A DNA stretch of 63,217 nt, counting the filler, from Collodictyon triciliatum (Eukaryota), in assembly GCA_043381765.1 (NCBI GenBank). It is 12 parts of 11 records of this genome, joined end to end, with 100 filler letters (N's around TTAATTAATTAA, not from the genome) between each part and the next. Parts side by side here need not be neighbours in the genome. Positions count along the whole stretch, not along the records: positions 42,305 to 48,401 come from JBHJMP010004711.1; 11 more parts are not named here. One strand, given 5' to 3'. This document shows, one piece after another, positions 6,104-60,892 of the stretch. The position numbers were made by a program, and so were the translations under genes. The notes beneath the pieces are model-generated. The model was given only the letters and a program-made list of their open reading frames with translations, searched no databases and was not told where the DNA came from. Numbering within the stretch: position 1 is the first letter of the stretch; each line of letters starts with the position of its first letter.

Positions 6104-6203
6104 NNNNNNNNNNNNNNNNNNNNNNNNNNNNNNNNNNNNNNNNNNNNTTAATTAATTAANNNNNNNNNNNNNNNNNNNNNNNNNNNNNNNNNNNNNNNNN
6201 NNN
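6104..6203. other. Artificial contig linker 44N-TTAATTAATTAA-44N
   Basis: The same 100-nt linker recurs at 12305, 18506, 21358, 23619, 29808, 36008, 42205, 48402, 54598 and 60793. TTAATTAATTAA gives stop codons in all six frames. Confidence 0.98.
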
Positions 6204-12228: not shown

Positions 12229-12304
<76 letters not shown>

Positions 12305-12550
12305 NNNNNNNNNNNNNNNNNNNNNNNNNNNNNNNNNNNNNNNNNNNNTTAATTAATTAANNNNNNNNNNNNNNNNNNNNNNNNNNNNNNNNNNNNNNNN
12401 NNNNAAAATAGAAAATAAAAATAGAAAATAAAAATAGAAAATAAAAATAGAAAATAAAAATAGAAAATAAAAATAGAAAATAAAAATAGAAAATAAAAAT
12501 AGAAAATAGATAAATAGAAAACCAATCCGAGGAATTAGATATGAAAGTAT

Positions 12551-17576: not shown

Positions 17577-18605
17577 GTACTAAATTGAGCATCATGGAGA
17601 CTTCTAAATATATTTGTACCTAATTTTCATCCATAATGTATAGATCTTGAAAGACTGAGATTTGTTAACGAACTTAGTCTGATATCATTTTTCTTGTAAT
17701 TTTATTTCCTCATTTATAACGAACATATTTTAAATTTGTAAAATGATTGAAGTTATCCATTTAGCTTTGTCCTTCTTATGATTTGTATTTACTTGTGTTA
17801 AAATAAATAAACATAATATTATTTTTCGAAAATGAACCTTTTTAATCAAGATCGGGGTTATGCGACCTATTTTTTTATTCAGTCATTTATTAAACATTCA
17901 AGTTAATCCTTTCAGACAAGAGCCTAGTATTTTAAATTGATTTTTTTTTATTATCGAGTTAAGTACATAAATATCTTTACCTATGTGTGAACGCGCCTAT
18001 CATGATATTTTGTTAAATTAAGATTTCGTCAGCAATTTCCAAAAATTAATCATTATTACTTCCTAAATTGTCTACCAGAGTGTATTTAAATATACCTCTA
18101 ATGCACTGGAGTCAAGTTTTTCTGATCTATGAGTTGAGTTGAAGTATTTTAGTATTTTTATCTTATTATTGAAATGTTAAAATGCAAGAAAAAAAAAACG
18201 TACGAACAAAAATCAAGTCGGTGCCATTTTGTAGTCGAACAAGCTTCTGTGGCACGGACGGATGAGGAAAGGAAAATATAGATAAGATTTAATGACATGA
18301 AAATGAACCCAATTTCCGCTAAAGGTAACGTATCCTCAAAGAGACTGATATAATTATATGTAAAATGAAGATGAAAAGGTGAAAAGATAAAAAAAATATA
18401 AAAAAATATAAAAAAAGATAAAAAAAGATAAAAAAGATAAAAAAAGATAAAAAAAGATAAAAAAAAGATAAAAAAAGATAAAAAAAGATAAAAAAAGATA
18501 AAAAANNNNNNNNNNNNNNNNNNNNNNNNNNNNNNNNNNNNNNNNNNNNTTAATTAATTAANNNNNNNNNNNNNNNNNNNNNNNNNNNNNNNNNNNNNNN
18601 NNNNN

Positions 18606-20786: not shown

Positions 20787-21829
20787 TAAATAAATCGCGG
20801 GTAGTGCACAGCCCGATGTTCTAGTCATGCAGATTTGGTTGGGAAGGTAAATTGCGCCTGATGGTTTTTTTTTAAATCGCTTATCTTTCTTCATTTGGTT
20901 CCTTGTTGTTATTGTTGTTTTTTCTTAATCTTGTTTGCTTTTCTTTGCAACTGGCAGCTGTTGACGATTCCGTTGTTGGGACAGCAGCGAAGCAAAGAAT
21001 CGGTTTTAATTCAAATGCGGAACTTACATATATAATACTTTTTGTTTGATTCAGGGCGAGCTATGCCATATGAATAAAAATAAATCATCAAAATTATTAA
21101 TATTGTGTCAAATAAAAGAAATCTTGTGTCACGAACTATCTGTGGCTAGGGTTCCTGTCTCCACGCAACCAACCAACGCAGGTGCCACCAAACTATATAT
21201 ATAATAGCTTTGTGACGCATCGCCCTTTTCTCCCAATGGAAACCGCATTTCTAAAACCCTCTTTTGTACGTGAAGCCCACTCAGTTGATCTGAATCCACA
21301 TCCTTTTTGGTCAATCGACCTGTTGGCACACCCACAAAACGCTTCAAAACGCCGTTTNNNNNNNNNNNNNNNNNNNNNNNNNNNNNNNNNNNNNNNNNNN
21401 NTTAATTAATTAANNNNNNNNNNNNNNNNNNNNNNNNNNNNNNNNNNNNNNNNNNNNTCAAGCTCACGTAAAAACCAAGACCTACACACCTTCACACCTT
21501 CACACCTTCGAGCCAAAAACTAAAGAAAAAACAAATTGAAAAAAAGAAAAAAAGAAAAAAAGAAAAAAAGAAAAAAAGAAAAAAAGAAAAAAACAAAAAA
21601 GAAAAAAACAAAAAAGAAGAAAAGAAGAAAAGAAGAAAAAACAAAACAAAAAACAAAAAACAAAAAAACAAAAAAACAAAAAACCAAAAAACCAAAAAAA
21701 GAAAAAAAGAAAAAAAGAAAAAAAGAAAAAAAGAAAAAAAGAAAAAAAGAAAAAAAGAAAAAAAGAAAAAAAGAAAAAAAGAAAAAAAGAAAAATCTAAT
21801 AACCCCACTTCGCTTCTTTGGACATGCAG

Positions 21830-23474: not shown

Positions 23475-23860
23475 GTTTGTGCTTATGAGCTTGTCCTCTC
23501 CGCTCTATATGGAATGATAGTCTCGTTTCCATGATGTGTATCGCCGAGGGCGAAAGAAAAAATAGTGCGGTGTGAGGTATATGTAAGGGGGCTTGTTTGT
23601 GGGTTTCTCATATCCAACNNNNNNNNNNNNNNNNNNNNNNNNNNNNNNNNNNNNNNNNNNNNTTAATTAATTAANNNNNNNNNNNNNNNNNNNNNNNNNN
23701 NNNNNNNNNNNNNNNNNNTTTTATCTTTTTATCTTTTTATCTTTTTATCTTTTTATCTTTTTATCTTTTTATCTTTTTATCTTTTTATCTTTTTATCTTT
23801 TTATCTTTTTATCTTTTTATCTTTTTATCTTTTTATCTTTTTTTTTTTTTTTTTTTTTTA

Positions 23861-42158: not shown

Positions 42159-42454
42159 ACTTTGAATTGAATACGTGAGAGATAAACGCGAGCTAGATCT
42201 AAAANNNNNNNNNNNNNNNNNNNNNNNNNNNNNNNNNNNNNNNNNNNNTTAATTAATTAANNNNNNNNNNNNNNNNNNNNNNNNNNNNNNNNNNNNNNNN
42301 NNNNATTGTTATGGGACACAGATGAAGGCAAAGCGGATGGGAGAGCATAAATTCCAGATTCTGCGACAGGGTTGAGCGAGTTGCCAATCAATCAATCAAT
42401 CAATGACGCTTTTTTTTTTTATTATATTTTGATCTCGGTGGGATGTGCTTCGTT

Positions 42455-45400
42455 TTAATGAAGGAGCCAGCGTAGGAGACCAGGGGGATTGTTAGCTGAT
42501 GCTCTGTTCTGGTTTGGTTGTCTCGTGTTTTGTTGATTGTGGTTAGATGAAATGCCATTGAAAAGATCGACATGCTCTTGGGAGATGGGAAATTGGCTGA
42601 TTAGAGCTGCCGAGGGATATCCCTGGTGATATCGGAGGTACTGTTGTGGGCCGAAGAATGTAACTCCAGGATAAATGCGGGTATCGGTGGCTTTGATTCT
42701 CCCACTCACAAAAGGCAGAATAATATCGCCAACACAAAACCAGTACCTCATTGTGCTGTAGTCAAAAACAAAACCAAAGGAACATGGCACCGCTCCAATT
42801 AGCTTCGTCAGATTTGCATCTACACTTCGAACTGTGGACCTGAAAAAAGTTAAAGGATAGTTTATAGCCAAATGAAAGAGTATTCGCCAGTTATAGGAGA
42901 GGAGCGCTGATATGTGGATGGTTCACGGGGCAAAACTCATGTGGCGCAAATAAAAACGCAAAAAAAAAAAAAAATGCAAATTAAAACGCAAATTAAAATG
43001 CAAATTAAAATGCAAAAAAAAAATGCAAATTAAAACGCAAATAAAAATGCAAATTAGAATGCAAATTAAAATGAAAAAATCGAAAGAAAAATAATAGGAG
43101 AAAAGAAGGAGGACTCTGTTTTCCATAATGATGTACCTGCAATCATTTTCGGTCAGATATGCTTTTCGTTTTCTCAAATCTACAACCATCCGCACACTGT
43201 CCTCTGTTTCTCCAAGAATGTGATTGCCTACTGCGCGGTTGTATGAAAATCCAAAAACTAAAATACCCTCTTTCCCTGGGTGGATTACCTCAAATTCAAA
43301 GAAATCAAACAGGAAGCCATCTCTTTTGTAAAATGGCTCAGTCCTTTGCCATGTGTAGAAATCAGGAGATTCGATGTATGAACAAAGAAAGAAAGGAAAG
43401 CTGACGACAAAAACTTTGGGATGAGATGACTGCGCAATCGTTGGACAATTTGCATACATGTGATGGCCTTTCTCATTTGGCGGACTCTTTAGGATGCGGA
43501 GAAAGAACGTTGCACAGGGACACATTATTCGAACGGCTGGTGTTAGCTGTAGATGTGGTATGAGGGATATCGAGACTGTAGTAGCTTGGGTTGGACTTGC
43601 AATTGTTAAACGGTTACTGTTGTAGTTCAAATGAAGAGTAAGTAGAGATTGAGGAGAGTTTTTGTAATCTGCTATGATGCCAATTGATTTACCATCAAAA
43701 AATATGTGTCCAGTTTTTGTATCAAATCCAAAAGAGTTGCGCCCAACACCCGGCACGATGTCTGGTTGTGAGTCGTATGGCACTAGGCCAATAATTGCAT
43801 GTCCATTCGAGACGTTGAAATAAAGGAATTCGTGGCCTGAAAACCCTGACCATGATACGTCGGAAAGGATGGTAAATTGTGGGATTCTTGTCGTTCCGCA
43901 AAGAATGTCGACGTAATCATGTGCCGAATCAACTAACAAATGAACGCCATCTATCACCGTGGGAGATAGAGCAGTGACTGGGGTAGCTGTGTTCGATGAG
44001 AAAGGTCACGTTAAATGCAAGTAACTTCTTTATTATTGATAAATATACCGAATGATAAGAAATAACGAGCATCACCATCTGCATGAAGAAATTGATTTGA
44101 ATGGTAGAATAAATCGATACACGCACCAGTAATAGCAACCGGTATCGGATTCGCTTGGCCATTTTCAACCTATGTATTTATAAAGAGGTAAACATTTTGA
44201 TAGTGACAACGACCATAATTTTTTTTAAACTGGCATGTGCACTGCGTATTTTATAGAAAAAGTGAAATAATTCACCGAAGCATTCTTTTTAAATGGAAAA
44301 AGATTTGCCTTTTCTTCCTCCTGGGTAACGTTGTATTTTATGTAAAGTAGCTCAAATGGATATACCATCACAAATAAAGCAAACCACACACAAAAGCTGA
44401 TTCCCCATATCAGTATGAGAATAACATATAGTAATAGCAATATAGCTTGCTCAGCAATCTTAAGACCTTGAGCCGATACCAGGTGGACAGCAAATAAAAA
44501 AGGTGCAGCGAAAATCAGAATGACTGTGGAAATAAGCCAGTGTATGGACAGAGCAAAAAAGTCAACAGCAAAGTAAATCACACCTCCTTTAGTTTTCAAT
44601 GGAGTGGACCACACAGAAAGCAGATTTGGCGTGGGAATGTATGTGACATACCAAGTCATAAAGTTTGAAGGCGTAATCAACTTCGACCAAAACGCTAACC
44701 TCTGGAGCCACGCTTCTCTCAGTAGCCATATAATAGGGAATAAGGCGTTGAGCGGGGGAGGGAGGGATACATTTTTCAGGGTAAAAACTGTTTCACAAAA
44801 GAGCATGTTGTATTGCTTCGACGACTCAGATTGCACGCTTTCGTAAGTGCCGCTCAGGATTGCAATTAGAAAATTCAGTAAAATAATCATTGTGATTAGA
44901 GAGAAGATATATGAATCTACTCTTCCCAGTATTTGTTGAACTTCAACAAACCCATTTGCATCAAATCCTCCAAAAATTGAGCTCATGGTTACATACAATG
45001 AATTCGAGTATAGGCTGTAGTCCGCCAAACGCTGCCCATAAATTGTGTAAAAATAGCTACAAAAAGCAACCAAAAATGCCAACAAAAAAATAAAGAAGCG
45101 AATAATATCACGGAACATGCTTTGTACTATGAATTGCATCGGACCTAAATTCGGGTCGATATTTGTGTAGAACAAAAGCCTGATGAAACTCAGCAGAACA
45201 ATCCACCCAACTAAAACCTTTTCAACAGACCAAAAATACGAAATGTCGAAATAGTTTTGCGTTTGGTCAATCCAGCCACTGGAAGAGCTACTAGATTGAC
45301 TAACAAGCAGGCTAAGTTCCGTTTCTACATAAGCCGTAACAGAAAATAGTACAAGTATCAGCATATCATAGAAAAACCAGGAATCATAAATGTCATTTCT

Positions 45401-47463
45401 CATGGTTAAGTGAAGTCGCTGGATTTGGTAAAGGAATAGAGATATTGCCCACACCAGCAAAACCAAATGGTAGCCAGCAGTTTTGATAGAGTCCTTGACA
45501 ATCCACTCTCTTGGTATTGACTCGACTGATACCCAAACATTGCACAAACCCGTGGGTAACACTTCTATATTGATTACTCCAATGGATAAGCATCCTATGT
45601 TGTCAAATGACACGACAAACTCGATGGCAACATATCTAGTCAGGTGGTCGATCCAGTAGTCATCCTTAAGTTCTTGCACTTTTTCTCGCATGAGCGATTT
45701 ATTTGACAGCTTAACAAACTCAACAAACCCGTCGCACTCGTACCAAAAGTTGGCCGGAGACACGGATGATAATCGATTTCTTGAACACAAATCTTTGAAT
45801 CGGAATTTTCCCTGGGGTCCAAACGGACTTTTGTCTTTGTGCTTGGTTATGTAAGGTGGAGAGCATTGTGGGAACTGAGATGGTGCGGGGTCAGTGCCAA
45901 TCGCATAAATATCTTGGCCACATCTCGTCTCTTGTACTCTCAACTGCCGCAAGCGCAAGCCCAAAATCGGTCGGTAAAAGGAATGAGAGATATTTTTTGA
46001 ATCTGAAGGAATGACACTCCAAAAACTGGCTGTATTATCAGCGTAGTTTTCGATTAAATCATCCTCGATGTAAGGCCAAATATGACCAACGTCGGATATA
46101 CCTGACGTATCGATTTTTTTCTCCAACGCACTTGATGCCGTGAATGCACTCACGTCCCCCGTTGTATTTTTATCTATGACGTATAGCAACAGGAGTGTCA
46201 AGAATAAAAGGTACAGAAAGAGTGACATAAAATATTTTGCTCGGATCGACCTGCAAAATCTTGGAATTATGTAAGCGTAATAAGCCAGTGCCCAGAACCA
46301 CGCCCAACTGAAAAATGAAGCATATGAATCTAATTTGGGCGGCACGGTTCTTGAATAATCCAAGTAATCCTTCGTACTTGCTTGATTACCCCACAATTTA
46401 TGTATGTAATCGTTTACGGCTGGCATCTCCAGGATAAGGAAGGCGCTATGTTGTATGCTGAGTTTTATGATCTCATCCAACTGCTCTTCGCCAAGATGGC
46501 TCAAACTGCTTATAAGGTTGCTCGCATGAATTTCGAAGGAGTCTCGCAAGGATGGAATAACCTTGGGTACACTGGAGAAGATGCCAAACAGTCTTAATGA
46601 ACGAATAAGCTGGTTCCGCTCCTTTATAAAAAGGGCACTAATTTCATCTGCCACAGTAACACTAATGTCATCGTTTCCAACTAAAACGATGGTGCACAAG
46701 GGGAGGCTGCATAATTCCACCGGAAAAGAATTCTCTGCAGTGTTGAGTGCATTTTAAGGCTGGTGAAATGAAAGCATGTTCTTCAAATGTATGAATATCT
46801 CTCTGGAGGCATAATAGATTCAATCAAACCTTGTGCTTTGATGTTGATATTTGAAGAATCAAGATTATCAAACATTTCCTTTTGAATTTGACAGTTGTCT
46901 TTTGGTAAGATATTGAGAGATGCGTCGTTAATCGTGTCATTCCTCTTGCTCCTTGATTTTCCATCACAAAGGCTGTTTTCTTGCAAAGCTAAGATATTGT
47001 AGCTAAAGTCAATTCGGTGAATACTTTGTAGACACCCAACATCGCTTGGAATAGATAGCAAATAATTGTGGGACATATCCAATGATTCGAGCAAAGCAAG
47101 CTGGCTTAGTCCTGGTGGAATCGACGATAAACCGCAATTCTTTATTGCCAGATCCCGGAGTTGAGTGAGCTCAAAAATAATCGATGGAAAGGCAAGACAG
47201 TGAGCCTGCTCGATGGAAAGCTTTGTCAAACCAGTCATCAGAGTCATCGAGGATGGTAGTGATACGCTGCTCTGGCCTCTGGAAAGCGCAAATGAAATAA
47301 AGAGTTCTTTCACATTGGTAAGCAGGCTGATCTCTTCTGGTATTACAGTTTGATCGATATGGTCGAGAACCAATCGCGTCATTTGCAGGAGCTGTGGGAC
47401 TGTGCATCCTTTCATATCAGCCAGGACATCCAGCGGATTCGTCGCCGTGCTGATAAACTGCAT
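42455..47463 (-). CDS. LRR - TRP/polycystin cation channel - SPRY - SPRY fusion protein
   Basis: LRR exon (47463-46830) splices in frame via a GT-AG intron (46829-46735) to the channel exon (46734-44276: LRLRQLRV..C, WIDHLTRYVAIEF, LGPMQ, SIFGGFD, IILLNFLIAILSGTY, LPPPLN). Further in-frame exons lead into two SPRY-like domains; stop at 42455. Confidence 0.88.
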
Positions 47464-47809
47464 GTCGCCTTTGCCCAACGGTGGCACCCTCTTTCTTTGG
47501 ATGAGTTCTTAACCTTTCTTTTCTTTTTCGCCTTTTTTTTTGGTCTTTTTGTCCGCGGCGATCTATTGTGTTGATTGTTTGTTCATTCACAAATGTAATG
47601 GTTTCAGTAGTGGTAACGCACTAAATGATGGGGCTGGTTTATTCAGAGTGTGTAGCCTTTGTACTTTCCCATTAAAAGAAAAGAACCTGATTCGCGTCAC
47701 CGATTCGTTTGCAGCTTTAGTTGGCCTTTGCGATGGGAGGTGGCCTCTTCTTTCAGACTTCGTCCTGTTATTTTTTTTTTTTTTCGTTTTTTCGTTTCTT
47801 CGTTTCTTC

Positions 47810-47906
<97 letters not shown>

Positions 47907-48501
47907 TTTTATTTTGTTTTATTTTGTTTTTTTGTTTGTTTTGTTGTTTTGTTTGCATAATCCCATAAGCTGCCATAGGCCACTCTTCCGTTGACATACA
48001 TCTAATTCTGGAAATTAAATAGTATTTGCCTTGGCAGAATTGTTTTTCTACAAAAAATCTACATGATGACTTATTATTGTAATATATAATCAAAAAATTA
48101 TAGTGTTTACACTTGCTGCACAATGAAGGTAATATCCCGATAGGATATAAATTCCAGCCACTCGCCACGCCCTTTGTGCATCGACCGAACTGTCATCATC
48201 AAAGGCATCGTTTTCATCTCATAAGTGACACCAGATTTATGCAAGGGATCCTTTCCAACGCAAGAAGCAAAAAACAAAACAAAAAACAAAAAAACAAAAA
48301 AAACAAAAAAACAAAAAACAAAAAACAAAACAAAAAACAAAACAAAAAACAAAACAAAAAACAAAACAAAAAACAAAACAAAAAACAAAACAAAAAACAA
48401 ANNNNNNNNNNNNNNNNNNNNNNNNNNNNNNNNNNNNNNNNNNNNTTAATTAATTAANNNNNNNNNNNNNNNNNNNNNNNNNNNNNNNNNNNNNNNNNNN
48501 N

Positions 48502-51500
48502 CATCATCCATCATCCACTTCGGCAACGTCTTCATGATTGGCGGAGGAATAAGGAGATTTTCCAAGAGAACCTCATCCATTTATACTCTTTCACTAAGTG
48601 AGATTTCATTTTAGTAAATTTTGACAACATATTGAAAAAAGTATTGAAACAACTCCCTGATTCAAATAGATGATTTTTGGTGCCGTGGATACGAAATTAT
48701 CGACAGCAGTATTGGATTCATTACAGATGGGAGTGGAGACTTTCAGTATTTTCCAGGGACAAATTGCGAATGGGATATTCAGAATACAAACTTTATGATT
48801 GTAATATTATCTCGTATTCAACATGTTGTCGATGAAATTTTAAACTGGGTTTCTATTTATATAAGGTGACCCAAGTAGATTTGACCGAAGGAGTATTATT
48901 GTCATTGGAATCACACAATGAGTGTGACATGGATATGATTTTGAACACTAAATATATTAGAAATGTAGGGCTGCAATATTTACACTCGATTTATTGAATA
49001 AGCAATTTTGTTAAATCACTTTCAAACCATAGATACACCTGCAACATGTAGATTATGGAACCCTCATTAAAATACCATCGGCTCAGTCTCGTTTGACATT
49101 CAAAGTTCCGTCCAGCGCATCAGCAAATCAGGGATTCCAGATTAAGTTATTGTGTACGTTCAAATTATATATGTTATAAAAAATTGAAATCTCGTGAATG
49201 GATGTCTTATCTTACACTCTCACTAGCATGCAACAAAGGATTTAGCGCAAACATAGAAGGTTGCTTTTGTGAGAAAGAAAATTACATAAACTTTCGAGGT
49301 GATTGTATCCCATGCCCTTCAGGAACGTACCAACCAAAGATGAACCAAGTAATGAAATAAATTTTAGTCCTAATATTTCACATTTATACATACTTTTAGC
49401 CTAATTAAAATTCTTTATTTGTTAAACCAGACATCTTGCATCGATGAGGCTGTAACCTCAAATATCAAGAAAGGTAATAACTGAGAGGTGATTAATATGT
49501 TCATCTCTATTGTAGGTATTTATTCGAAAATATTCATATATACGGCAGGTAAATACGAAGTGAGGCAAACCCAGTCGATCGATATGAGTATTGAGATACC
49601 TCCGACAGTTTTTGGTCAGATGGTTTCAATTAACGAAACGTTTTACCTTATTGGTGGGAGCACATCGGCAGATACTAGTGCCTTCGAGCATTACCACGCT
49701 ATGGACACGGTTTTTTCGACAAATAGACTTGGTAGTAGTTCAGTTCATGTATTTATTAACTTTTCATGCTTCGATTAATAATATGTCTTATTTTTTACGC
49801 TGCAGTCGAATCGAAATGGATTCAAAACGAATTTCATGGGGATGTACCGCATGGTCGAGTCCACTTTTGTGCAGCAGGGATGGATTCATATGCAGTCCTG
49901 TTTGGCGGTGAAATGAGCGCAAACGATGACTTTGTGTACTTTTTATTCCCTGATACAAAAAAGTGGGAAAGAATGAATCGTGCTCCTGAGAATCGAATCG
50001 GAGCTGCATGTGCAAGAGATAGAAATAAAGTTTACGTATATGGAGGAAAAAGTGTATGCATTTTTATGAAAATAATGAACTATTCTATCTTAATTTTTAT
50101 AAAAATGATATGGTAAATTCCTGATCCACTTAAATCAACTTAGAAAAATGGATTTGTCGAAAATTCAATGTTTTCTTATACCCCAGGTTCACTTAAATTA
50201 CATAATATGAATAAATTCCATAGATTACATTACATGTATGCTAATGAAAATATTTTCTCCAGAAAATGATTCATGGGATAAGCTTTATATCGAAGGAAGA
50301 GCACCTCCCCTTTCATTCAGTGTCATGGTCATTTACAAAGATATACTGATTGTATTTGGTGGATTTGATGGCGTATCAGAAAATAGTCACTTTTACCTTT
50401 TTAGCCAAGGTCACATCTCTATTTGATTAAAAAATATTGCCCTAATTATTTACACCATCATATATTCTAATATTTATACCATAGGAAAGGAAGATACATT
50501 TTATGTGAACAATACCATCGCATCCCTGAATGAATGTATTGTTTGCAATGAAGAGGGAGGCTTGTGTGATTTTTCTCGTCAAATATTCTCGCATGGAGTT
50601 TTTGGAAATGAAATTCAAATTTTCGGAGGTTTTAGGTAGGGAGAGGCTCTCGAAGATATCACTGTAATAAATCTAGGTAAACAACACAGCAGTTTATTGA
50701 ATCGAAAACCAAAATTGTTTTACTGTAATTAAATTTTTAATCGATTATTTTTTTGGTATTTTTAGATACCTTTCAAGTAGAGTTCCGCGAAAATTATGGA
50801 CTAGAGAACCCAAAATTACCATTAGCTTATCCGCCACCAAAATATGGTGCAGCTTTTGCTATGCAGAATTCTTCTCTGATGATTGTTGGAGGTGCAAGCT
50901 CAAGCAATATTGTTGGGAATGACAGATGGACATGGGATGCTGGTGATTTTGAAATGGATATACGCACAATAATCGATAGCTAGTATTATCTCATTATGGT
51001 AATCTTTATTAACACGCTCATGAAGGACTCCGAACATGGTCGGATACATCCATCAGAATGTCACCTGTGCATCGAAGTGACTCATCAGCAGTAAAGTTAG
51101 GTGAAGATACTTTCCTAATTTTCGGAGGTGCTACCGAATATCTGGAGGAACTATTGCTGAACGACATATGGCAATACAACATAGGTCGTAATGAAACTTT
51201 TTTTATGAAGAAATTAAAATTTTGGTATTTTGCTGCGTATTTGCATCAATTTAACGGAATGAAATTCTTAGTGGACCGAAAATGGGATTGCCTGTTTGCT
51301 GAATCCGATAATAATGGTCCTCCTCCGAGAGCTGGCGCTGTGATATCAGTACATAATTCAAAGCTGTACGTCTATGGGGGCAAAACAGATGTTTTAATTT
51401 TTGATGAAAACATTTGGTTGTTCAGCATTAGTAAGTGAACTGTAATGCCAAGTTGATTTCTTTTCACAAAATTATCACATATTCAAACTAAATGGCGTAA

Positions 51501-54500
51501 TTTTTGGAAAGATTCTCGCATATGGGAAAAAATCACGTTCAAAAATAGCTTATCGACATACCAGAGGCCTCTCAATCGTATCGGAATGGGATTTGCACAT
51601 ATGGGTAATCAAACATGGATGTGGGGTGGAGAGGTATTCTGTTTTCCATTATCCCAGTATATCTTGAAAAAATGATTGTGTAATAGCTTCTAAAATTATA
51701 ATTTTCATATCAGATTGTGGAGGGAACGAAAAAGAAAGAGTTCTACTCTGCCGTCCTGTATTTTGACCATCAAGACAAAGAATTATTACCCTCAAGAATT
51801 CTCGGAACTATTCCAGTAACGCAAAATATATCTTGTATCTAACCATAATAAATAATAACCAAAATTAAACAAAAAGAAACCTTTATTTTCCTAACAGACC
51901 CGGAGACAACACCATTCAATGTGCCAAATGGATGATGAAACCATTCTTATGCAAGGAGGATTTGATTTTTCAGGAAAGGAGTTGAGCGATATGTGGAAAT
52001 ATAACAAAAGTATATTTTCTTTTAAAGATATCAACATAATTTACCAGAAAATCTAAACATACATTTTGATTAAAGGTTCACAAGAATGGATGACTTTTGA
52101 ACTCTCAAAAAACACAACTGTCATTCCTTTGTCACATCACACATGTACTTCATTTGGAGACTATACCATTTTAAGTGGATTCAGTTCGACTTTAGGCACC
52201 AGCAAATCAATTATGGTTCAGAGAGGTCATTATCATAGATTAAATAAAATTCTGATATTCGTGTATTTGTATGAGCCTAATACTAATTATTCAACAATGA
52301 ACCAAAGATTTTCAGGTGCAGTCTCTTCTATTCCACTCAAATGAGGTCAAAGGATACGCATCTATGACAAAAAATAATGTTTTACGATTTGGAGACCTTT
52401 TGGTATACTTTGGAGGGAGAAATGCGCACTCTAGAACCAACCAAGTTATTTCATATTTGCCAGGTAATAATTGTAAAGAAAATTAAGAAATTTATTACAG
52501 CTCAAATTTATGATGCCGAAATATAGGGTTCTGTTCGTCCAACTCAGCCACTGAAATCGACAGTAAATTTGAACCATCCGTTTTTGATGATGGAAGTGGT
52601 GATGGGATGTATTTGGAAAATTCAAACTGTACATGGATTCTTCCAAAAGCCACCCATATTATTGTGGAAAAACGCATTCGAGATGAAGACAGGTTTTTTA
52701 TATTAAACTATACATGATTAATTAAGAATTACATTATTTATGATGCAAAATTATTAAAAATTTATCAGATTGGATATCTACGACCTAAAAACCGGCTCAA
52801 AGTACAAAGATGAAGACTTTACAAATAATAAATTCGTTCTATCGTCCAAAACTGGATTTTTGATTCGATTCTCATCATTTGAAACTAACCCGGCAAGTAA
52901 AAACAAGCCGTGCAAGGGATGTGAAGGATTCAGCATCACGCATACGAGTAATGAGCCTGGATTTGATTGCGTCATTTGACTATGGCGTTTTTCATCTATA
53001 TTTTGATGGCTCTTTTTTATATGATAGATTGCCCCCTGAATGGTTATCTTGACTTTGATAGTAAGACATGCTTATGTGCCGATGGATATAAACTTATTCA
53101 GGTTTTTTTCAAATACACCAGATAAAACAAATTGAATCGAAATAAATTCTATATTAACCATATGATTTTTGAGAATTGTAACAGAGTCGATTTTTTTACA
53201 GGGCGAATGCACCAAAGGTAAAAATAAAATAAAATGCAATTTCGTTATTCAACAAGGCTTTCATAACTTATTTTATTGAATATATTTACCTGCCGATATC
53301 GAAGACAATCCTGGCTCGGATTATATACCTATCATCGGCGGTGTCTTGGGTGGCGTTTTATTCGTTGGCTGCATTGCAGGATATATCTATCGAAAGAAAA
53401 TGGTAGAGAAGATGAAAGGAGCAGAAAGTAAGCTTTATGGATTCATCAATCCAAGGGAACTTCAGTATGGCAGGCTGCTTGGCTCAGGGAGCTTCGGAGA
53501 TGTGAGTTAAAACCTCAATTAACCATGAGAATTTATGATCAAACAAAAATAATCACAGAATTTCAAATATAGGTCTACTGCGGTGAGTGGCGAGGAACTG
53601 AAGTGGCAATAAAAAACTTGCTCCAGAAAAAAATTACGACGCACCAAATAGAGGCATTTAAAAGAGAAATATCCCTTATGGTGTAAGTATTTCACTGTAT
53701 GCAAGTTTTTAATCGCTATTTAAATCTATAAATTGCTTTAATATCCAGTGAGATGAGGCATCCAAATATCGTACTTTACATGGGAGCATGTTTCGAGAAA
53801 GAACACCTATGTCTTGTGTGCGAGCTGATGCAACAAGGAAGCTTATATGATGTCTTGCATTCCGAAAAATCAATTCCATTCGTACAAAGGCTACATTTTA
53901 TGTCTGATATTGCCAAGGGTATTTTATTCTTGTTCATTTAGTATTTTAACCACGTATTATTTTTATGATTTGAGTCCATTTAAAAACCATAATGCTAGGA
54001 ATGAAATATTTGCACATGTCAAACCCTCCTATCATTCATCGAGACTTGAAAAGCCTAAACATACTTGTAAGCCTCATATTCAGCTATTTGGAATTTATTT
54101 TCTCATTACTTTTTTCTTAAATCACAAAGGATCACTATAAATTCAATATTTACTAGGTTGATGATAGGAGCAAACTCAAAGTCAGGTAAAAATAATGATA
54201 ATGACAGGGCAGGAATAATTTGCAATTGAAACCTATGATAAAAAAAATTATTCCGAATCCAATTAAATTTGCTTTGTAAAAACAGCGACTTTGGCCTCAC
54301 AACAATCCAAGGCTCAAAAAAAATGCACGAGAACATGGGAAGTCTCTTATGGCTTGCTCCAGAAGTTCTCGGAGGTGCAGAATACACAACTAGATCTGAT
54401 GTGTTTAGCTTTGGAGTCATTGTATGGGAAATAATTGCAAGAAAGGACCCCTATTTTGACCTAGAAAGTACCGCTGTTGTAACAAACCTAGTTTTGAATG

Positions 54501-54597
54501 CAAATCTTCGTCCAACAATACCATCAAATACCTCTGAAGAATTAAGGAACTTGATGCACGAGCTATGGGCACAAGACCCCAGCCAAAGAATAACATT
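48502..54597 (+). CDS. Single-pass receptor kinase: Kelch/CUB/Cys-rich ectodomain, TM, TKL-type kinase (both ends truncated)
   Basis: CUB-like starts (CRG..GFITDGSGDFQYFPGTNCEWDI; FDDGSGDGMYLENSNCTWIL), CIPCPSGTYQP, many Kelch GG repeats and TM IIGGVLGGVLFVGCIAGYIYRKK (about 53330-53400). Kinase motifs GSGSFG, VAIK, RHPNIV, IIHRDLKSLNIL, SDFGL, WLAPEVL, SDVFSFG. Confidence 0.92.
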
Positions 54598-54697
54598 NNN
54601 NNNNNNNNNNNNNNNNNNNNNNNNNNNNNNNNNNNNNNNNNTTAATTAATTAANNNNNNNNNNNNNNNNNNNNNNNNNNNNNNNNNNNNNNNNNNNN

Positions 54698-60790: not shown

Positions 60791-60892
60791 GGNNNNNNNN
60801 NNNNNNNNNNNNNNNNNNNNNNNNNNNNNNNNNNNNTTAATTAATTAANNNNNNNNNNNNNNNNNNNNNNNNNNNNNNNNNNNNNNNNNNNN

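Follow-up and report, generated by a model that had tools for sequence, protein, structure and literature searches.

A TRP channel gene of Collodictyon triciliatum with a polycystin-type TOP domain and group-1-type gating parts

Introduction

TRP channels are routinely split into group 1, whose members have a TRP helix and a short S1-S2 loop, and group 2, whose members have a TOP domain and no TRP box. The origin of these two groups is open because most sampled protist TRPs fall near group 2, as laid out in PMC9242649. A minus-strand locus in a 63,217-nucleotide stretch of DNA from Collodictyon triciliatum (assembly GCA_043381765.1; hereafter the window, in which contigs are joined end to end) raises the question of whether the two sets of features can reside in a single channel and, if so, how they came together. 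A first-pass annotation had noticed both sets in one exon (44276..46734) and had offered either a chimera or a lineage retaining an ancestral combination as the explanation. The evidence presented below makes it likely that this exon encodes the channel core of a ~1,400-residue leucine-rich-repeat (LRR)-channel-SPRY TRP channel, in which a TOP domain and group-1-type gating parts form an old, inherited combination.

Group-2 and group-1 hallmarks in a single exon

Every motif quoted in the first-pass annotation could be placed on one protein, P0001, the 842-amino-acid (aa) product of the minus-strand open reading frame (ORF) 44225..46753; residue numbers below are those of P0001, and positions are those of the whole window. 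All of them lie within a single open exon, 46734..44276 on the minus strand, and the limits first given for it coincide with a GT-AG acceptor (46735/46734) and a GT donor (44276/44275). The features of the channel core are as follows.

46259..46615, minus: cytoplasmic linker helices and pre-S1 block, including AFLILEMPAVNDYIHKLW with W121 (aa 47-165)
46388-46432, minus: quoted pre-S1 motif LEMPAVNDYIHKLWG (aa 108-122)
46163..46246, minus: S1, from hydropathy and an AlphaFold (AF2) helix (aa 170-197)
45488..46162, minus: TOP/polycystin domain in the S1-S2 loop, with Cys278 and Cys297 (aa 198-422)
45920-45964, minus: quoted loop motif LGLRLRQLRVQETRC (aa 264-278)
45617-45670, minus: quoted loop motif LKDDYWIDHLTRYVAIEF (aa 362-379)
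45158..45487, minus: S2, S3 and S4, from hydropathy (aa 423-444, 458-484 and 506-532)
45134..45148, minus: LGPMQ motif of the S4-S5 linker, which carries G537, the glycine of the group-1 fingerprint (aa 536-540)
aa 549-553, minus: quoted motif DIIRF
44834..45133, minus: pore module, comprising S5 (aa 541-573), pore helix and filter SSIFGGFD (aa 583-598) and S6 (aa 608-640; LNFLIAILSGTY)
44771..44833, minus: TRP-like helix with Y648 at the place of the TRP-box Trp, from a HMMER alignment, predicted local distance difference test (pLDDT) 81-87 (aa 641-661)
44747..44764, minus: box-2-like proline motif LPPPLN (aa 664-669)
44678..44752, minus: predicted post-TRP helix, an AF2 helix at model residues 655-679 with pLDDT 81-85 (aa 668-692)
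44336..44587, minus: S7 and S8, two additional hydrophobic helices whose hydropathy peaks at 2.37 and 2.93 (aa 723-806)

Judged by its profile match and predicted fold, the S1-S2 loop is a true polycystin/TOP domain of the TRPP/PKD2 type, as had been proposed. Polycystin_dom (Pfam code PF20519) covers aa 219-412 with an E-value (E) of 2.5e-10, and the predicted model superposes on PKD2 with a Z score of 27.8. The cysteines Cys278 and Cys297 are nearly invariant in the alignment, and presumably correspond to those of the PKD2 disulfide. Among the TOP-less TRP rows that we collected, a TOP profile found no matches. The PKD_channel family (PF08016) covers aa 431-640, i.e., S2-S6, with E 1.5e-12; in precomputed lists it also matches many TRPC/TRPM proteins and hence discriminates poorly. 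A phmmer search against solved structures places PKD2L1 (3.5e-19) and PKD2 (8e-18) at the top, and, averaged over blocks of 10 residues, S2-S4 are modeled with pLDDT mostly of 86-96 and with 80 in a single block.

The group-1 side begins upstream of S1. A profile of aa 47-196 built from the query and eight relatives (profile A2) retrieves TRPC3 (1.6e-4) and TRPM5 (4e-4) from the Protein Data Bank (PDB), followed by TRPC1/6 and TRPM2/8/4; among the best 60 of 85 rows there are TRPC/TRPM chains only and no PKD2. The alignment with TRPC3 (residues 223-390) spans the linker helices via a conserved Trp to S1. When run locally at E<=1e-3 as a control, profile A2 recovers 67 of the 116 TRPs that lack a TOP domain and 2 of the 15 mixed proteins, by which we mean TOP-bearing proteins outside the family with a group-1-type S6. 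Only one of 117 canonical TOP-bearing proteins is matched, and this one (P0042) has an atypical S6 and is placed outside the canonical clade. The pre-S1 segment, with its “LWG” motif, had been listed among the group-1-like features. The Trp of this motif does not by itself set the groups apart, since a functional pre-S1 Trp, along with a “TRP-like domain,” is also reported for TRPP channels (Zheng et al. 2018, PMC6483072); the group-1 resemblance resides instead in the entire linker-helix/pre-S1 block, as the family profile shows.

Table 1 of Cabezas-Bratesco et al. (PMC9242649) defines a twelve-position group-1 fingerprint in which hPKD2 has 6 matches, with S in the S4-S5 linker, N-x-F-L-A in S6, and nothing at the TRP Trp. 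Against the 6 of hPKD2 in that table, the query has 9 of 12 strict matches (W121, Y181, G537, F564, F617, N627, L629, I630, and A631) and 11 of 12 on allowing Tyr for Phe/Trp (Y174 replaces F and Y648 replaces W), the S1 and W positions having been mapped by us from the HMMER-TRPC3 alignment and spacing. The hPKD2-type residues are thus not kept at G537, L629, I630, A631, and Y648. Gly at 537 is found in all 9 mixed rows, all 7 TOP-less rows, and all but one of the 8 family rows, and canonical PKD rows show S/G/N/A/K at this position. In S6, where the query has L629 and I630, 56 of the 79 canonical PKD rows carry F at the first of these positions and 42 carry L at the second; together, N627, L629, I630, and A631 constitute an N-x-L-I-A of the group-1 type.

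The segment following S6 extends this resemblance. On comparing aa 596-700 with the PDB, CrTRP1 (E 7e-4), NOMPC (2.7e-3), and a TRPM2-like protein (0.01) lead, with PKD2 reaching just 0.14-0.19 and aligning only up to aa ~650. In the HMMER alignments, Y648 falls on the W of NOMPC EWKF and of TRPM2-like VWKF, and the family consensus at this place is x-Y-x-x-[LI]-F-A. LPPPLN aligns with APSPLN of NOMPC and CPPFN of CrTRP1, and is comparable to “box 2,” for which the TRPC consensus is LPPPFN. The proline motif lies 38-40 residues past the S6 Asn in the query and in all listed relatives (P0003-P0010). The succeeding post-TRP helix may be equivalent to the re-entrant helix of TRPC/TRPM. Beyond it, the two “extra hydrophobic helices” that had been noted are found as hydrophobic segments by hydropathy (aa 723-764 and 761-806); AF2 predicts them as helices at a low pLDDT of ~41-62, and they align among the relatives. 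Within the pore, the filter FGG (44966-44974; aa 594-596) lacks the acidic residue: the Diphylleia relatives discussed below mostly have FG[D/E/N]F, and the PKD2 filter is L-G-D. The filter Gly may mean that selectivity differs or that partners are needed.

Predicted fold

Two models were compared with known structures, using Foldseek and VIA (VIA match ranges give first and last residues only). Model 1 is an AlphaFold prediction of aa 14-842 with a pLDDT of 74, in which most of the transmembrane (TM) core and much of the TOP domain exceed 90. Model 2 (aa 418-700; pLDDT 88.9) was obtained from an alignment of TOP-bearing proteins only. Model 1 is closest to PKD2 (Foldseek E 1e-22; VIA Z 25.6-27.8), the best case being 6t9n with Z 27.8, a root mean square deviation (rmsd) of 3.2, and 452 aligned residues over model residues 154-634. 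The PKD2 matches end at model residues 622-637, and those to group-1 structures (Z 15.7-17.0) extend to 649-673, for instance, to TRPV1 residue 712-714.

With model 2, PKD2 and group 1 tie in the VIA comparison. TRPC1/5 (Z 15.2) and TRPC3 (15.0) are matched with very high rmsd; the TRPM2 chanzyme follows with Z 14.6 (rmsd 4.1, 242 aligned, reaching 271), then TRPM7 with Z 14.4 (rmsd 3.0, 236 aligned, reaching 260), PKD2 with Z 13.8 (rmsd 2.8, 226 aligned, ending at 230), and CrTRP1 (PDB 6pw4) with Z 11.4 (rmsd 3.9, 215 aligned). By Foldseek, TRPC3 is matched over 267-272 columns at 3.8-4.0 A (7dxb: TMq 0.71, rmsd 3.8, 270 columns) and PKD2/PKD2L1 over at most 225 columns with TMq 0.59-0.69. 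The matched cores with group-1 structures have 16-20% identity. A TRP-helix arrangement, in which the helix past S6 would lie parallel to the membrane, is predicted from the TRPC3 superposition, which runs through the TRP helix, and from the reach of the TRPM matches, although DSSP draws S6 and this segment as one unbroken helix. The coexistence, in one protein, of a TOP domain with a group-1-type pre-S1 block, S4-S5 linker, S6, TRP-like helix, and box 2 is borne out by Pfam, profile, motif, and fold evidence. These domain identities, the motif conservation, and the predicted fold are what our analysis establishes.

A diphylleid family and its relatives

An exhaustive HMMER search recovered 1,074 proteins at E<=0.001, of which the eight best are all transcripts of Diphylleia rotans from EukProt (P0003-P0010), with E 1e-83 to 1e-36 and 24-30% identity; the best identity to any relative is 29-30%. 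Seven of the eight combine LRRs, TOP domain, and channel (P0009 is without an LRR match), five have a Pfam SPRY domain, and all eight share the same tail and the same feature order. Given this collinear layout, the query can be regarded as a member of a diphylleid LRR-TOP-channel-SPRY family, in which the Diphylleia proteins are paralogues or distant orthologues of the query gene because they share only 24-30% identity. A word-index homologue search with the whole ORF gave no match; its words came from the first 500 residues, and most relatives are too long for its length window.

Outside this family, mixed proteins, mostly with the proline motif, were found in Pyxidicula, Flabellula, Difflugia, Cavostelium, and metagenomes. 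Ankyrin repeats are present in some of them, and four carry both PF20519 and PF23317 in precomputed Pfam lists. We scored 150 TOP-bearing rows, counting isoforms, in which S4-S6 is near-complete: 119 show neither N-x-L-I-A nor the proline motif, 21 have both, 8 have only the S6 type, and 2 have only the proline motif. Each of the 23 rows that carry the proline motif is a member of the family or of the mixed set. LPPPxN, which might have been common in ordinary PKD2 homologues, is thus uncommon there, being absent from the canonical PKD2-type matches.

Phylogeny of the two modules

As had been recommended in the first-pass annotation, the TOP domain (45 rows, 201 columns) and S4-S6 (79 rows, 134 columns) were analyzed in separate trees, both of them “quick” IQ-TREE runs and unrooted; neither places the family inside canonical PKD2. 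In the S4-S6 tree, 28 canonical PKD rows are split from 51 others with a Shimodaira-Hasegawa-like approximate likelihood ratio test (SH-aLRT) value of 87. Besides the family and the mixed proteins, these others comprise protist TRPs lacking a TOP domain, two ankyrin-rich proteins without a name, and proteins named as TRPC, TRPM, and TRPV6. The family forms one clade (support 76) on the group-1 side of this main split, and P0089, P0108, and P0117, three mixed proteins of Amoebozoa, nest in the crown with TRPC/TRPM (SH-aLRT 92). The TOP tree likewise recovers the family as a single clade (91) that falls outside the main canonical cluster, and the TOP domains of those three proteins lie on long branches. 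An approximately unbiased (AU) test on S4-S6 gives p 0.017 for the family and canonical PKD as one clade, and p 0.121, i.e., no rejection, for all TOP-bearing rows as one clade.

The TOP and S4-S6 modules thus appear to tell a similar story, contrary to what would be expected of a recent chimera. Unrooted and weakly supported as they are, the trees fit either polarity of the change, an ancestral combination or an ancient domain gain.

Gene model and transcript-level data

The channel exon appears to belong to a longer gene, contained entirely in a 6.1-kb contig (42305-48401; JBHJMP010004711.1) with no N run inside.

46830..47463, minus: exon 1, ATG 47463-47461 and N-terminal leucine-rich repeats, donor AAG followed by GT at 46830/46829
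46735..46829, minus: intron 1, 95 nt, GT..AG, phase 1, from sequence reading
44276..46734, minus: exon 2, entire channel core from pre-S1 linker to S8, an ORF open throughout
44127..44169, minus: proposed mini-exon 3 (VENGQANPIPVAIT), with GT-AG introns 44275..44170 and 44126..43987 on either side
42455..43986, minus: C-terminal SPRY-like region, exon 4 from 43986, with at least one more intron before ORF 42455-42922

In exon 1, Pfam LRR families are matched with E 2e-7 to 4e-5, all under the curated cut-offs, and the Diphylleia relatives match 47433-46876 (tblastn); the putative start codon at 47463-47461 was deduced from alignment to the N terminus of P0003. Splicing of intron 1 would recreate the family motif FPVELC, counterpart of IPPEVC in the relatives. 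Exon 2 aligns with P0003 over 46732-44486 (tblastn E 5.7e-76). Mini-exon 3 is the sole phase-compatible path that we found, and would yield an open frame and a collinear alignment with P0003. The SPRY region of P0003 matches 43792-43691 (tblastn E 4.7e-5), and Pfam SPRY gave no match at E<=0.1 in the query's own ORFs, including the SPRY-like ORF 42926-44005 (minus). From its collinearity with the SPRY regions of the relatives, this ORF would encode very divergent SPRY domains.

The four-exon model (47463-46830, 46734-44276, 44169-44127, and 43986 onward) is open for 1,399 codons with no internal stop. Its product gives a single collinear blastp alignment with P0003 (14-1320 versus 7-1318, 1,366 columns, E 6.7e-104). 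Because a phase-compatible GT-AG path to the SPRY region exists, we tentatively favor a fused LRR-channel-SPRY product over a true protein end at the stop at 44225.

One cDNA-like run covers 43032-44217 in three unspliced pieces and stops short of the channel exon; a contig of it is continuous and unspliced over 43759-44217, across the proposed mini-exon 3. This contig may represent a truncated cDNA copied from unspliced RNA, or else the SPRY part may have a transcript start of its own. At the contig's end at 44217, 8 bases beyond the stop of the channel ORF, it carries 24 loose letters, which we take to resemble a cDNA-amplification (template-switch) oligo. Freshwater metagenome contigs match scattered pieces of the locus, including parts of the channel exon, at 95-100%. 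No splice joints were seen in the cDNA-like and metagenome contigs, and the proposed introns are neither confirmed nor refuted by them.

Elsewhere in the window, contigs are joined by spacers of the form N44-TTAATTAATTAA-N44, which give a stop in all six frames.

Spacers: 6104-6203, 12305-12404, 18506-18605, 21358-21457, 23619-23718, 29808-29907
Further spacers: 36008-36107, 42205-42304, 48402-48501, 54598-54697, 60793-60892

As spacers flank the contig 42305-48401, the neighbors past them are uninformative on the gene. Most contigs are ~6.2 kb long and are arranged by nearly descending size. Many contig ends have long poly(A)/poly(T) or microsatellites such as (GAAAA)n, (AAAACA)n, (ATA)n, and (TGTA)n (e.g., 12230-12304, 35950-36007, 36108-36190, 47770-47900, and 48300-48401) and are probably assembler stopping points. 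The next contig has Kelch-repeat (beta-propeller) exons on the plus strand at 49760-50116 and 51013-51438 (best Pfam E 8e-10 and 1e-10). The C-terminal half of a TKL-type protein kinase (PK_Tyr_Ser-Thr, E 7.8e-22) lies at 54242-54592 (plus), truncated at the contig end.

Mechanism, age, and alternative explanations

By analogy, we infer conduction, tetramer formation, the gating route, and ligands: the product would be a cation channel subunit of the TRP superfamily, presumably tetrameric like its relatives, with six core TM helices and two extra ones. The TOP domain would cap the voltage-sensor-like S1-S4 domain and the pore from outside in the manner of PKD2, and the TRP-like helix beneath the S4-S5 linker would couple the S6 gate to the TRPC/TRPM-type pre-S1 block. 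This block might in turn link the gate to the cytosolic LRR and SPRY protein-binding modules, with the two-helix hairpin of aa 723-806 keeping the C terminus cytosolic.

Several observations weigh against a channel of this kind with an old combination of features. The TRP box, given as WKxxR in PMC6483072, is absent, the query having Q-Y-N-M-L-F with no Lys/Arg at the box positions, and the pore-helix aromatic of the fingerprint is missed (Met590). From S4 to box 2, PKD2L1 scores slightly above TRPC3 (34.2 versus 30.7 bits). A family-only profile of the post-S6 tail without S6 is weak: of the 111 TOP-less TRPs it recovers 1 at 1e-3 and 10 at 0.1, compared with 0 of 109 canonical PKD rows; at 55 aa it is too short to inform. 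A single-sequence search of the PDB with the pre-S1 region gave no meaningful match, and the family profile was needed. In both models, DSSP assigns S6 and the TRP-like segment to one unbroken helix, which alone would also fit a straight PKD2-like extension, and AF2 may lean on TRP structures in its training. The tree supports are modest, the trees quick, and the AU-tested groups were named after the data had been seen. Transcription of the channel exon and splicing of the introns were not seen in the cDNA-like or metagenome contigs, and this copy, with its filter Gly, may conduct differently or not at all.

One alternative consistent with the best overall matches, which are to PKD2 by both sequence and fold, is an ordinary polycystin-2 homologue in which LGP, LIA, and PPPxN resemble group 1 by chance or convergence; the weak tail-only profile and the functional pre-S1 Trp and “TRP-like domain” of TRPP (PMC6483072) also fit it. 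We nevertheless regard it as very unlikely: 119 of the 150 TOP-bearing rows lack N-x-L-I-A and the proline motif, and all 23 proline rows are family or mixed; the pre-S1 profile separates 67 of 116 from 1 of 117; and pre-S1 block, S4-S5 linker, S6, and tail agree independently, with conserved spacing. A recent, gene-specific chimera, through exon shuffling or an assembly artefact fusing PKD2 and TRPC/TRPM pieces, is a fair worry in a window that joins short contigs artificially. It is, however, the least probable account, to the point of being nearly negligible, given that all the features lie in one uninterrupted exon of a single contig, that metagenome contig pieces match parts of this exon at 95-100%, and that eight Diphylleia transcripts have the identical feature order. 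With similar proteins in Amoebozoa, and with trees that both put the family outside canonical PKD2 and in which neither module nests within a crown clade, the chimera suggested in the first-pass annotation is not supported if it is understood as recent or as particular to this gene. A decaying or non-conducting copy, be it a pseudogene or a subunit needing partners, would account for the filter FGGFD where the relatives have FG[D/E/N]F, for the best identity of 29-30% to any relative, and for the only cDNA-like contig being unspliced over the proposed introns and stopping before the channel exon. The 2.5-kb exon is open, though, as is the four-exon model for 1,399 codons, and the fingerprint residues and TOP cysteines are retained, so that this too seems improbable, if less so than an ordinary polycystin-2.

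A stronger contender, albeit one we deem unlikely, is an ancient domain gain, whereby a group-1-like protist TRP gained a TOP domain, or a TRPP gained group-1 cytoplasmic parts, by a recombination that long preceded the diversification of diphylleids and Amoebozoa; the mix would then be derived rather than ancestral. It draws on the placement of the family and the mixed proteins with group 1 by S4-S6, on the p of 0.017 against the family with PKD, and on the nesting of P0089, P0108, and P0117 in the TRPC/TRPM crown with long-branched TOP domains. Against it, the TOP tree is broadly congruent with that of S4-S6, each placing the family and the mixed group of Amoebozoa outside canonical PKD; the AU test does not reject uniting every TOP-bearing channel in one clade (p 0.121); and we can name no clade as the donor of the TOP domain. 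Taking these findings together, we favor an inherited, old combination over a local fusion, because the combination appears to be shared by the diphylleid family and because related TOP and TRP-helix channels occur in Amoebozoa. As for a lineage retaining an ancestral combination, the idea is plausible, but the unrooted trees do not demonstrate it and the combination is not limited to one lineage. On rooting the S4-S6 tree on the polycystin side, it suggests that TOP and TRP-helix channels might form a grade between the canonical polycystins and the TRPC/TRPM/TRPN crown, the first TRP having had both; we offer this only tentatively and consider it rather unlikely. If true, group 1 would have arisen by loss of the TOP domain and the canonical TRPP/TRPML by degradation of the TRP domain, and the query gene family would be a living example of the ancestral state.

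Significance and comparison with known systems

The protist family and its amoebozoan relatives indicate that group-1 and group-2 features are not mutually exclusive, and they supply rooted TRP phylogenies with taxa that break the long branch between the groups. The query is also a natural construct for asking whether one pore can be gated both by a TOP domain on the extracellular side and by a TRP helix in the cytoplasm, and its LRR and SPRY ends suggest regulation through protein partners of a kind not known for animal polycystins. In the literature covered, which did not include the TRP review of Himmel and Cox, neither a TOP domain with a group-1-type TRP domain nor an LRR-polycystin-SPRY channel has been described.

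With PKD2/PKD2L1 (TRPP), the best overall match (sequence E 3.5e-19, fold Z 27.8), the query shares the TOP domain in the S1-S2 loop with two nearly invariant Cys and the six-helix core with its pore. It differs in having Gly in the S4-S5 linker (LGPMQ) for S of hPKD2 and N-x-L-I-A in S6 for N-x-F-L-A (PMC9242649, Table 1), and in a post-S6 tail that aligns with group-1 TRP domains where the PKD2 matches end at aa ~650. The pre-S1 block of the query is TRPC/TRPM-like, and its LRR and SPRY modules and its two additional TM helices are further differences. In common with TRPC3/6, TRPM2/4/5/7/8, and NOMPC, it has the pre-S1 block, the S4-S5 Gly, the S6 N-x-L-I-A, and a post-S6 helix with an aromatic at the Trp place, followed by a PPPxN-type motif and a further helix. 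These group-1 channels have a short S1-S2 loop in place of the ~225-residue TOP domain of the query, which in turn is without the WKxxR box, ankyrin repeats, and TRPM homology regions. The D. rotans LRR-polycystin-SPRY proteins (P0003-P0010) have the same domain order and all the mixed hallmarks, differing in their 24-30% identity, in mostly having Asp/Glu/Asn at the query filter Gly, and in a variable LRR number. SPRY is also a module of ryanodine receptors (RyR).

The nearest precedents for the combination of a TOP domain with a group-1 TRP domain are CrTRP1 and the oomycete PKDRR fusions. CrTRP1 of Chlamydomonas reinhardtii (6pw4) is a protist channel with a group-1-type TRP domain, and it is the best PDB match for aa 596-700 (E 7e-4), its Trp position being occupied by Phe and its box 2 reading CPPFN; to our knowledge it has no TOP domain, and the structural match reaches only Z 11.4. 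PKDRR, a PKD channel fused to RyR “R” domains as described in PMC7399828, has R domains rather than LRR/SPRY as its added parts; the terms “TRP box,” “TRP domain,” and “SPRY” are absent from that paper, and the likeness drawn here is one of domain description. At that level, it provides an earlier example of a protist channel of the polycystin type joined to cytosolic modules otherwise known from ryanodine receptors.

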